A stretch of DNA of 62,926 nucleotides from a virus (Duplodnaviria > Caudoviricetes): positions 1-62,926 of the IMG/VR virus record IMGVR_UViG_3300025598_002100. One strand, given 5' to 3'. The position numbers and the translations under genes are program-made. Positions 60,568 to 62,926 of this stretch are shown piece after piece (position 1 is the stretch's first letter; each line of letters starts with the position of its first letter). The notes below the pieces were generated by a model. It was not told where the DNA came from. It saw only the letters and a list, made by a program, of their open reading frames with translations, and ran no database searches.

Positions 60568-61449
60568 ATGAAAGCTCTTTTTACAGGTGGGTTAGGCGAT
60601 TTTATTGGAGCTGAAAGTTTCATGACAGAATTTGAAAAAGATTCCGTCACTGAAGTATTATGGGCAACACGTAATAGAGAAGAAATACGCTCTGCTGTAA
60701 ATTTAAAAGATATTTTTCCTAATTTAGAAAAAGAAACAATTATGTATGATAATTTTTGTGATGAACGACCAACTAAACCATGGCAACCCGGTGATCGTTT
60801 TATTAATATACATCGTAAAGAAGATTTAAATCGTATGTGCGGGTTAAATCTCACCGATCAAGAAATGGCAGATATAACTGATTGCGGGCTTGACCCTACT
60901 TTAGAAAGAATATTCAAAGGTCATAGATGGCAGAGCAGCAGAATTACTACTCGTAGCGCTTGGCCTGATATTGGTAGATTTAATTTACCACACCGTTATG
61001 TAGTAATACATCCTTGGAGCGATGCTGAAATTAATGGTAGAGAATTCGATGATAATGATTGGAATCATATTTTTAAATTTCTTGACCAAAATAATATTAT
61101 AGGTGTAGTTGTAAATCGAAGTACTAAGACCGCTCCGTTACATACAAAATTAATAGATTTAACCAATCAAACTAATTTAAAAGAAACATTTAACATTATT
61201 ACAAAAGCAGAAATGTGTATATTGTGTGCAAGTAGTTTAGCATGTTTTGCTACAAAAATATTTCCAAAAGATAAAATTTGGTTAAAAGGCGGCGTTGAAC
61301 ACATGTTTTCACAGTGGGCTACTTATTTTTATCACGGACCATTTTTAAACCCGAAAGATATTATTTTTAAAAATTTATCAATTTTAAATTCTTATTCTAA
61401 TAAAAATCAATCTAAAATGCTTGACCAAGGAACATTAACACTGTTATAA
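60568..61449 (+). CDS. GT9 (heptosyltransferase-fold)-like protein
   Basis: GGLGD, VVIHP, IDLTNQTNLKE, SSLAC. Confidence 0.55.
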   Translation: MKALFTGGLGDFIGAESFMTEFEKDSVTEVLWATRNREEIRSAVNLKDIFPNLEKETIMYDNFCDERPTKPWQPGDRFINIHRKEDLNRMCGLNLTDQEMADITDCGLDPTLERIFKGHRWQSSRITTRSAWPDIGRFNLPHRYVVIHPWSDAEINGREFDDNDWNHIFKFLDQNNIIGVVVNRSTKTAPLHTKLIDLTNQTNLKETFNIITKAEMCILCASSLACFATKIFPKDKIWLKGGVEHMFSQWATYFYHGPFLNPKDIIFKNLSILNSYSNKNQSKMLDQGTLTLL

Positions 61450-61455
61450 TAAAAT

Positions 61456-62298
61456 ATGAATAATTTAACTATCGTAGCTGTAACTACAGTAAAACATGCT
61501 TTAACTAGCAAAGCAATTGAACAAGCAGTGCAAGTAACTAATTCAAAGAATGTATTAGTTATTAGTGATCAAGACTTATATCCCGGATCTGTTCATATAG
61601 ATACAGATCCTCTCTCTATTAGAGATTATAGCGAGATAGTATTTCATAATCTAATCGACTATATCGAAACAGATCATTTTATGATGGTCCAATACGATGG
61701 AATGCCAACTGATGCTACATTTTGGGATAATGACTATTTGAAATATGATTATATCGGTGCAGTTTGGCCATGGGCACCCGAAGGATTAAATGTTGGTAAC
61801 GGTGGATTTAGTATTAGAAGTCGAAAATTATTAGAAGCCTGCCAAACATTACCATTTGGATTAGAAGAATTTGGTAAAGACAAAGATATTGAAGATGCAA
61901 CTATTTGTCGTTATTATAGAAAAACGTTAGAACAGCAAGGAATACAATTTGCTACAAGTGATTTGGCAAAAAAGTTTTCTGCAGAATTACCTGGAGGAAA
62001 ATTCGACACATTCGGGTTTCACGGTACATTATGTCTACCATTTTATTTAAATGATGTTCATATGGAATTTTATATCAATAATATGACAGATCAAATGTTA
62101 AACGATCCTATACAAATCAGAATTGCATATGGTTTGTTTAAAGCAGGCAAATATTATCATTTAGAAAATTTTATGGATCATGCGGTATCGTTAGTTCCGA
62201 ATTTTAAACAAATATTATTGAATCAATTTCCGCAAGACAACAAATTTTTTCCGGAATTTAGTTTAAATGATTTGGAAAGTTTGTTAATTAACTATTGA
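61456..62298 (+). CDS. DUF5672-like putative glycosyltransferase
   Basis: QYDG, YDYIGAVW, VGNGGFSIRSRKLL, ED, FGFHG. Confidence 0.75.
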   Translation: MNNLTIVAVTTVKHALTSKAIEQAVQVTNSKNVLVISDQDLYPGSVHIDTDPLSIRDYSEIVFHNLIDYIETDHFMMVQYDGMPTDATFWDNDYLKYDYIGAVWPWAPEGLNVGNGGFSIRSRKLLEACQTLPFGLEEFGKDKDIEDATICRYYRKTLEQQGIQFATSDLAKKFSAELPGGKFDTFGFHGTLCLPFYLNDVHMEFYINNMTDQMLNDPIQIRIAYGLFKAGKYYHLENFMDHAVSLVPNFKQILLNQFPQDNKFFPEFSLNDLESLLINY

Positions 62299-62323
62299 CA
62301 GCAGGGATAAATAAACGTATATT
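62295..62323 (+). promoter_or_regulatory. sigma70 promoter with an embedded late box for the tRNA region
   Basis: TTGACA, 17 bp, TATATT; GATAAATA at 62306-62313. Confidence 0.75.
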
Positions 62324-62369
62324 AAATATCTATGTTGTAATGCATAGACTTAATAAACAAGGAATAATA

Positions 62370-62513
62370 ATGATAATTGCAGCGACATTTAGAACTCATA
62401 ATAGTAAGACCTTTAAAGCAGGGTTCATACCCGCTTGGTCGTCGATTATGAATTATTCATATGATCGCGGCCAAGAAGGGAGTCCGGGGTCCGGAAGTGA
62501 GATGTTAGAGTAA
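62370..62513 (+). CDS. Putative 47-aa leader peptide
   Basis: AAGGAA RBS at 62359-62364; 3' end overlaps the antiterminator arm. Confidence 0.6.
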   Translation: MIIAATFRTHNSKTFKAGFIPAWSSIMNYSYDRGQEGSPGSGSEMLE

Positions 62514-62576
62514 CAACAAAACATCTAAAACCACTTAAAGGACCCTAGGATTAAGAACCCTGGGGTTTTTGTTTTT
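62486..62576 (+). terminator. Attenuator: alternative antiterminator/terminator helices
   Basis: Terminator AAGGACCCTAGG/CCTGGGGTTTTT plus GTTTTT; competing GGGGTCC/GGACCCT, AAGTG/CACTT, AGATGTT/AACATCT. Confidence 0.7.
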
Positions 62577-62686
62577 AGCAGTGTGAAAATAGGGTAACGA
62601 GGACCCTGCAGCGCACTATAAACATGCTGTAAACGGGCGGAACCGGGGATCAAACCTGTGGCGAAAACGCAGGGAGTAAAATCCGG

Positions 62687-62736
62687 AATTTATATACTAA
62701 AGCATACCTAGTGTAGTATGCTTTAGTATATAAATT
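62687..62736. repeat. Perfect 21-bp inverted repeat
   Basis: AATTTATATACTAAAGCATAC-N8-GTATGCTTTAGTATATAAATT. Confidence 0.9.
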
Positions 62737-62740
62737 ATTT

Positions 62741-62825
62741 GGGTAAGCGCCGGAGTGAGAGAGCCGGATTTGACTGTAAATCAAACGTTCCGACTGAGTA
62801 GGTGCGAATCCTACCTTACCCACCA
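62741..62825 (+). tRNA. tRNA-Tyr(GTA), with non-canonical D/T loops
   Basis: Acceptor GGGTAAG/CTTACCC plus ACCA; D stem CCGG/CCGG; anticodon arm TTTGA-CTGTAAA-TCAAA; T arm GTAGG-TGCGAAT-CCTAC. Confidence 0.88.
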
Positions 62826-62831
62826 AATAAT

Positions 62832-62926
62832 GCGGCAGTAAGTGCGTAATGGGCTAGTGGTGGCCAATCCTGTCTACATGGATCCAATGTAACGGTTGCA
62901 CCTTGATGTAGGTTCGAATCCTATCT
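62832..62926 (+). ncRNA. tRNA-like RNA, 3'-truncated by the window, non-canonical interior
   Basis: 5' GCGGCAG; T arm GTAGG-TTCGAAT-CCTAT followed by CT (start of the expected CTGCCGC); no canonical D or anticodon arm. Confidence 0.5.

Follow-up and report, generated by a model that had tools for sequence, protein, structure and literature searches.

The leader-peptide attenuators trpL, hisL, thrL and ilvL belong to amino-acid operons of the enterobacteria. T-boxes bind uncharged transfer RNA (tRNA) directly and need no translation. The closest published case among those checked is the upstream open reading frame (uORF) of whiB7 (wblC) in mycobacteria: according to the source, stalling on this uORF, which is specifically alanine-rich, is believed to bring about antitermination into the gene downstream, whiB7 is activated by defects in many amino-acid, tRNA and tRNA-synthetase genes, and the uORF's coding sequence sets what is sensed (PMC10274678). 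Here we consider a stretch of virus DNA, positions 1 to 62,926 of the IMG/VR record IMGVR_UViG_3300025598_002100 (Duplodnaviria; Caudoviricetes), which at its whole length of 62,926 bases is called the window below. Near its end a promoter, a small open reading frame (ORF) and an intrinsic terminator, together termed the leader unit, stand in front of structured RNAs and tRNA-like genes, and the last codons of the ORF can pair with the 5' arm of the terminator. Judged from the window and from related loci, this unit is probably a ribosome-mediated (leader-peptide) transcription attenuator heading a phage RNA-gene operon.

The unit has much in common with the enterobacterial leaders, namely a promoter-proximal short ORF that is apparently translated, a terminator before the genes that would be regulated, pairings that the ribosome would choose between, and a stop codon at the loop of a hairpin. 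The enterobacterial leaders, however, have four segments and the phage unit has three, so that an untranslated phage leader would read through. Moreover, the codons of the phage family are spread over all amino acids and codon classes, with no run of codons for a single amino acid as in the enterobacterial leaders, and the phage unit would regulate RNA genes (tRNAs, structured RNA) rather than biosynthetic enzymes. With the T-boxes it shares, on the phage side as a prediction, the coupling of the state of the tRNA pool to terminator read-through via a choice between antiterminator and terminator; the T-box Rfam model had no match in cmscan runs over 61500–62926 (E up to 1) and 62320–62745 (E up to 10). 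The whiB7 uORF controls a bacterial transcription factor, whereas the phage unit is even in composition, precedes tRNA genes and shows no sequence relation to it. The whiB7-type features are indeed not seen here, since the window leader has 4 Ala in 47 residues and the downstream genes are RNAs. The proposed mechanism is of a textbook kind, leader-peptide attenuation, while its use for phage tRNA genes was not found described: the full-text literature searches gave no attenuator before phage tRNA genes and no leader covering all amino acids.

An earlier note on this DNA, made from the sequence alone, had proposed a promoter, a ribosome-binding site, a 47-codon ORF with 33 codons and 18 amino acids, a hairpin and a terminator, and all of them are found at the positions it gave (Table 1). 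The 5' arm of the antiterminator hairpin is formed by the last ten codons of the ORF, with GGGGTCC at 62486–62492, and its 3' arm ends in GGACCCT at 62540–62546. The pairings proposed earlier (GGGGTCC/GGACCCT, AAGTG/CACTT and AGATGTT/AACATCT), including the sequestered 5' arm of the terminator, coincide with the minimum-free-energy fold of 62480–62590, which has an energy of -34.9 kcal/mol (z -3.55) equalled by one of 200 shuffles; the antiterminator hairpin alone folds at -27.8 kcal/mol. The terminator stem has an energy of -13.9 to -16.3 kcal/mol, and its tail is TTTTTGTTTTT, ending at 62576. Since the two structures overlap at 62538–62552, they are mutually exclusive, and when the end of the ORF is blocked in folding, as by a ribosome, the terminator is the predicted structure. 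A consensus terminator scan missed 62538–62576 because it allows loops of 3–8 bases only. A long-range helix, 62419–62426/62555–62562, present in the full fold of the window, was rejected, being broken in the related loci L010, L012 and L014.

The proposed course of events is the following. Host RNA polymerase would start at the 62295 promoter, and ribosomes would translate the 47-codon leader. A ribosome that reaches the stop codon would hold the 5' arm of the antiterminator open, the terminator would fold, and transcription would end at 62576. If the ribosome lags, is stalled earlier or has never loaded, the hairpin would form first and the terminator arm would be sequestered; transcription would then continue into the spacer RNA and the tRNA and tRNA-like genes. 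We infer translation of the leader ORF from the conservation of its ribosome-binding site and ATG, from in-frame indels and from the frame remaining open in all 34 distinct related sequences considered below.

Table 1. Features of the leader unit and its surroundings in the window (positions of the window)
Feature	Positions	Strand	Details	Basis
Last protein gene before the leader unit	61456–62298	+	DUF5672-like	
Sigma-70-type promoter	62295–62323	+	TTGACA-17-TATATT	11/12 consensus positions
Hairpin at the predicted transcript 5' end	62330–62347	+		RNA folds
Ribosome-binding site	62359–62363	+	AAGGA, six bases before ATG at 62370	
Leader ORF	62370–62513	+	47 codons and stop (MIIAATFRTHNSK...GSGSEMLE)	ORF list, codon counts
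Predicted antiterminator hairpin	62481–62552	+	stop codon 62511–62513 at the apex	
Predicted intrinsic terminator	62538–62576	+	12-pair stem 62538–62549/62559–62570, 9-base loop, T-run	predicted fold
Structured spacer RNA	62577–62686	+		predicted fold
Long hairpin	62687–62737	+	near-perfect, 21 pairs, AT-rich; directly before the first tRNA	
Non-canonical tRNA, GTA (Tyr) anticodon	62741–62822	+		Rfam tRNA model, 42.1 bits, E 3.3e-7
tRNA-like RNA truncated at the contig end	62832–62926	+	complete in L010, L013	

The record is a fragment of an uncultured virus with an estimated completeness of 17%, found mainly in freshwater metagenome runs, and the genes of the window are densely packed on the plus strand. 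Exact-word and peptide scans yielded four further loci of the same close group, here group A (L010; L009/L012/L015; L013; L014). L010 lies on a 328-kb contig that is 92% complete, and L009, L012 and L015 lie on one contig of 69.9 kb. L013 differs from the window by 2 mismatches in 2,269 bases. In L015, the neighbouring genes are about 75% identical to those of the window, while the stretch from the leader to the tRNA is 87–100% identical, depending on the segment. The upstream genes of L010 and L014 are unrelated to those of the window, and homology begins at the -35 box: identity is 9 of 25 bases just upstream, and 28/29 and 26/29, respectively, in the promoter. As the homology starts at the -35 box behind different genes, the stretch from the promoter to the tRNA is a module. 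In the four distinct group-A sequences AAGGA and ATG are invariant and the bases between them are variable, the indel in the ORF is of three bases and in frame, and 7 of the 11 variable columns in codons 10–47 are at third positions. Both arms of the L012/L015 terminator change together, as judged by eye. In the window, L014 and L015 the fold of minimum free energy is that of the antiterminator. Within the family, group A forms a divergent branch, 44% identical to the B-type leaders, with 18–19 amino acids and with no second small ORF after the terminator.

The leader unit recurs in about 35 other distinct loci of phages, most of which are situated at a tRNA array or within one. The earlier note had suggested looking for the same architecture before tRNA arrays of related phages, with the peptide not conserved; the architecture is indeed there, but blocks of the peptide are conserved as well, also as nucleotides. 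In a set of nine loci (L022, cut at the 5' end, was omitted) all nine have the same order of promoter, small ORF, terminator, spacer RNA and tRNA genes, the sigma-70-type promoter being situated 33–81 bases before the ATG, the ORF having 44–55 codons and the terminator following 47–57 bases after the stop. The peptides form three groups, of which A and B are 44% identical and C is 13–25% identical to A; the window and L020 share 44% identity over 45 aligned codons. A search with a profile built from groups A, B and C produced 52 protein clusters of 38–74 residues (E 4.5e-23 to 3e-3), none with a name or a Pfam domain, and the back-translated motif produced 37 further viral loci, 28 of them distinct. 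The ORF length in the family ranges from 42 to 57 codons. All 28 distinct B-type loci have a promoter before the ORF and 26 have a terminator after it, one of the other two being cut by the contig end and one having an aberrant tail. Same-strand tRNA genes are found within the 900-base downstream flank in 22 of 26 loci, seven of which also have tRNAs just upstream, and the gap between the terminator and the first tRNA lacks a strict promoter in 14 of 19 loci. Despite indels, all 34 distinct DNA sequences of relatives keep the leader frame open, compared with 3–7.5% of shuffles of their own composition.

Counts of distinct loci omit L028 and L052, which are cut at the 5' end, and the duplicates L038–L040, L045, L060 and L061; composition counts omit L054, which is truncated at the contig end, and L055, whose tail is aberrant. 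L002–L008 are relatives of the upstream DUF5672-like gene and were left out of the comparison. Two hits of the representative search, P0008 and P0009, are repeat proteins and were dropped as spurious, and L019, retrieved by the hairpin/terminator pattern, is an unrelated terminator. A scan of genome contigs gave no relative. In cultured phage records tblastn with B-type or C2-type leaders (E up to 0.01) and blastn with window positions 62200–62926 gave no matches.

Comparison of these loci indicates selection of the antiterminator as an RNA structure. While the 3' arm of the terminator is yet to be made, its 5' arm is predicted to pair with ORF codons in the nascent RNA of 9/9 and 26/26 loci, and in the full-length fold it is paired with them in 6/9 and 25/26. 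Since the nascent pairing test is weak against shuffles, it was replaced by tests of hairpin stability and by shuffling of the 3' strand. The stability of the hairpin is beyond that of all 300 shuffles in groups A and B and in L025. GGGTCC in the ORF together with GGACCC in the terminator arm is present in 35 of 39 loci. Among 25 distinct sequences, GGGTCC is read as GGG TCC (Gly-Ser) in 14 and as nGG GTC C (x-Val-x) in 11; being kept across two reading frames, the bases are conserved and the peptide is not. A three-tier hairpin is predicted in all 25 distinct relatives, with the stop codon in its apical part in each of them. The coding tails differ widely, yet the non-coding 3' strands follow them: the native 3' strand beats 300 shuffled 3' strands (P<0.05) in 23 of 25 cases, with a median z of -3.4; the P value for the window is 0.043.

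The second line of evidence is the composition of the leaders. Family peptides were trimmed to the shortest plausible start before amino acids were counted, and a codon class was defined by the first two bases and a purine or pyrimidine at the third, which gives at most 31 sense classes by our own count. Out of 52 family peptides, 34 contain all 20 amino acids, 14 contain 19 and four contain 18; the only amino acids ever missing are Cys (11 times), Val (10) and His (once). Windows of the same length from phage genes contain all 20 in 1.4–2.8% of cases at 44–48 codons and in 6.6% at 55 codons. The 35 ORFs from the new loci are similarly rich, 29 having 20 amino acids and six having 19, and a member with all 20 occurs in nine of ten sequence clusters. 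Cys, with a background of 1.3% in the proteins of these phages, is present in 36 of 40 distinct B-type peptides (once in 24, twice in 12), at 15 different offsets from a fixed motif. His is never absent from the B-type peptides, with a mean of 1.02 per peptide.

At the codon level, 34 distinct ORF DNAs have a median of 36 codons and 28 classes per 46 codons, against null values of 27.4 ± 2.9 and 21.6 ± 2.1, respectively; the class coverage of the relatives of the window is 27–30. Both codon boxes are used for serine in 34/34, for arginine in 30/34 and for leucine in 27/34, the nulls being 0.53, 0.33 and 0.65. Compared with shuffles of their own composition, 25 of the 34 are significant (P<0.05) in class coverage, 17 in amino-acid coverage and 11 in codon number. 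The automatic placement of the boundary of the hairpin arm is noisy, and the resulting counts for the prefix of the ORF are for loose use only.

The window leader itself is less rich. Cys and Val are missing from its 18 amino acids, and it has no runs of codons for one amino acid. Its third-position GC content (GC3) is 0.43, compared with 0.23 in the 54 long ORFs of the window, and relative to 47-codon windows of those genes the P values are 0.018 for the number of distinct codons, 0.030 for GC3 and 0.285 for at least 18 amino acids. Relative to open shuffles of its own composition this ORF is ordinary (P 0.47 for codons, 0.32 for classes, 0.57 for amino acids), hence the window alone shows only disregard of the codon bias of its genome. 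Since the related leaders include all 20 amino acids and almost all codon classes, what the family reports is most likely decoding capacity in general and not the supply of one amino acid, with the window copy a less complete member. The earlier suggestion of a general tRNA-pool sensor agrees with the relatives, whose coverage exceeds chance as such a sensor would predict, but is not supported by the window ORF itself, whose 18 amino acids are not above shuffles.

In many loci, a second conserved ORF of 52–54 codons starts 15–20 bases after the T-run. It has its own ribosome-binding site and no promoter, contains the motif LTPEQ.KKLI.DK.ERA and stops where the spacer RNA begins; the window lacks it. 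Examples are L053 (1085–1249), L056, L058, L059, L062 and L043, and shorter versions are seen in L023 and L025. Pfam searches with it gave only sub-threshold matches. Since the second ORF and the spacer RNA lack a promoter, transcription must cross the terminator to make them. The spacer RNA, behind the terminator or behind the second small ORF, is also found in L020–L025, L029–L033 and L043–L062.

The spacer region of the window, about 165 bases, is strongly structured (z -5.51). Its helix 62591–62595/62603–62607 has several compensatory changes in other contigs. The 19-base core GCGCACTATAAACATGCTG, followed by GGGCGG, recurs in 8 viral contigs and led to six more large-phage contigs; within it, TATAAACA may resemble a late promoter box of the T4 type. 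Apart from the one tRNA, the Rfam runs described above gave only chance-level matches of the microRNA type, which fall on the long hairpin at 62687–62737; the spacer RNA had no match. This hairpin may be a processing site.

The earlier note had stated that tRNA genes follow the terminator. One tRNA does follow, by the Rfam model; ARAGORN found no tRNA and no transfer-messenger RNA (tmRNA) in the window, and the contig ends inside the second, tRNA-like RNA. The complete copies of this RNA in L010 and L013, of about 105 bases, have by eye an acceptor-like stem, a T arm and CCA, and it is called by neither ARAGORN nor Rfam. A third conserved structured stretch follows it in the RNA regions of L010 (7728–7990) and L013 (2084–2345). 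Beyond the point where the window ends, L013 has three tandem paralogous genes (2398–4351; 242, 230 and >177 residues) that share the motif W(R/N)DC(V/I)AKLEEGYD and belong to no clear family. In L010, 26 of the 28 tRNA genes are found in the 10 kb that follow the leader, and the array covers all 20 amino acids if the Tyr-like gene seen by Rfam only is added to those called by ARAGORN.

The promoter stands 46 bases before the ATG and AAGGA six bases before it, both being invariant in group A. In 61400–62926 there are 14 promoter-like sites, compared with 7.2 ± 2.8 in shuffles, and none of them is on the plus strand of 62350–62926. When the window was searched for repeats of the promoter and of the terminator, only the copies at the leader unit itself were retrieved.

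A number of observations weigh against attenuation by a translating ribosome, or narrow what it could control. Termination, read-through and translation are all inferred, as are the decision by ribosome position, the direction of the response and its physiological purpose. The design reads through without any ribosome, unlike the trp attenuator. Shuffled ORF ends still pair over 5–7 bases with the terminator arm (P 0.04–0.58), and for this reason the nascent arm pairing alone is weak evidence. In L021 (P 0.11) and L023 (P 0.20) the hairpin is no stabler than in shuffles and the terminator wins the full fold; in L010, too, the terminator and not the antiterminator is the minimum-free-energy form. 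The lower antiterminator stem has no compensatory changes in group A, and single substitutions weaken it in L010 (G to A at 62487) and in L012 (C to A at 62484). When 3' strands are swapped between relatives, the result is significant in 11 of 25 cases and the swapped hairpin is as stable as the native one in 14 of 25, although this control is less decisive because many coding tails are alike. In the array of L010 three promoter-like sites with 11/12 consensus positions lie directly before tRNA genes; these sites and an ORF on the opposite strand of the array mean that gating by the leader would extend no further than the first transcription unit. In L023 and L025 an additional promoter and a small ORF lie between the terminator and the spacer RNA.

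In the window lineage, three paralogous protein genes come after the Tyr-like tRNA and two further structured RNAs, the next 2 kb hold no canonical tRNA, and the tRNA cluster that the earlier note had placed here is reduced to odd tRNA-like RNAs and then protein genes. The window leader has only 17 of its 18 amino acids upstream of the hairpin arm and belongs to the group with the weakest members, none of the four group-A sequences beating composition-matched shuffles. In many B-type leaders the Asp and Glu codons lie less than a ribosome footprint away from the hairpin arm, so near that a stall there may escape sensing. Finally, the conserved blocks keep their third positions: 16 of 20 residues shared by the window and L020 have the same codon, the identity of the two by codon position 1, 2 and 3 is 32, 25 and 23 of 45, and across 27 sequences the third positions of the B-type core GCC AAA CAG GCA GGC TTT ATG CCC hardly vary. 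This conservation points to a role at the level of the RNA or of the codons. It would be expected if codon identity itself is selected; it could also reflect an unrecognised RNA or arrest-peptide function.

Part of the data would also be explained by an ordinary small early gene, encoding a functional 47-residue micro-protein with its own promoter and a leaky terminator, in which case the hairpin would stabilise the 3' end of the messenger RNA and the adjacency of tRNAs would be a matter of gene order. Such a gene fits the blocks KAGFIPAWS, SYDR and EG.PGS, conserved across groups at 44% identity, the share of third positions among the variable columns of group A (7/11 in codons 10–47), the ORF length held to 42–57 codons and the separate promoter after the terminator in L023 and L025. 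However, these blocks are conserved as nucleotides, third positions included, and GGGTCC is kept while the encoded peptide shifts frame. Cys at 15 positions and coverage of all 20 amino acids would be hard to explain for a folded product. A hairpin that sequesters the arm of its own terminator counteracts a simple terminator, a functional RNA and the second ORF lie behind that terminator with no promoter of their own, and searches of Pfam and PHROG with the leader ORF gave no matches. Thus we regard a micro-protein gene as an unlikely explanation of the unit.

Two further explanations appear less probable still. One is an element of RNA processing or stability, with sites of the RNase III or RNase E type that split the leader message from the tRNA precursor, with transcription unregulated at this point and translation incidental. 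The tract 62330–62740 is highly structured throughout (z -6.0 and -5.5), it sits in a run of unusual structured RNAs, and the 33-base terminator piece with its loop is nearly unchanged in many contigs, all of which suits processing; the tRNA cluster of phage T4 also carries small stable RNAs. The open frame, far above the level of shuffles, the conserved ribosome-binding site and ATG and a codon-class coverage that exceeds composition are not what incidental translation suggests, the stem with its U-run has the form of a canonical intrinsic terminator, and the mutual exclusivity of the two hairpins is left unexplained, so we would give a pure processing element little credence. The other explanation retains attenuation and replaces the signal, which would be a small molecule or protein sensed via an arrest peptide, or a phage protein, for instance that of the second small ORF, binding the terminator loop. 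The invariant core AKQAGFMP..W, which in the window reads KAGFIPAW, may together with the DRTPE block resemble arrest peptides with conserved Trp and Pro, the sequence of the terminator loop is conserved, and many relatives have the conserved ORF of 52–54 residues after the terminator. Yet the conservation of the core is as strong in nucleotides as in amino acids, no ligand or partner was identified, and the coverage of all amino acids and of codon classes is not predicted by such a signal; this version too seems quite improbable.

Several other features of the loci were observed. The promoter spacer between the -35 and -10 boxes (62301–62317) is itself shared by the groups (..TAAATAA..GTA), suggesting a further binding site or promoter feature there. 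In the hairpin 62330–62347, the window has U-A at the pair 62333/62344 where L010, L012 and L014 have C-G, while other pairs are broken in some relatives. In L034–L037, L041, L042, L046, L047 and L049 the -10 box ends 10 bases before the ATG, which would make the message almost leaderless; in this subgroup the unit stands amid a tRNA array, and tRNA-Met and tRNA-Leu lie just before it. In L055, a permuted tmRNA gene (133–605, by ARAGORN) is situated about 300 bases upstream of the leader promoter. A near-identical terminator stands behind the leaders of most related loci, and the 33-base piece of it, 62538–62570, loop included, occurs in many contigs with unrelated flanks and high summed depth, as read in the runs X12, X14, X17 and X18 (DNA contigs).

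Coming back to attenuation by a translating ribosome, a more specific version of it is possible, although we put it forward tentatively: the leader would serve as a test message, a pangram of roughly 45 codons in which selection maintains each amino acid and almost all codon classes, and a shortage of any charged tRNA would delay the ribosome and open transcription into the full tRNA set of the phage and the RNAs made with it. Such a shortage could result from starvation, from a codon mismatch with the host or from tRNA-cleaving defence nucleases. Phage tRNA genes are usually treated as constitutive cargo. If the pangram version is true, a virus would have homeostatic, demand-driven control of its imported translation machinery, and giant phages would measure the decoding capacity of the host and top it up on demand. 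This would bear on the question of why large phages carry tRNAs and of how tRNA-targeting defences are met, as well as on the generalisation of leader-peptide attenuation from one amino acid to all, and the leader unit would be a compact, portable sensor of translation stress.

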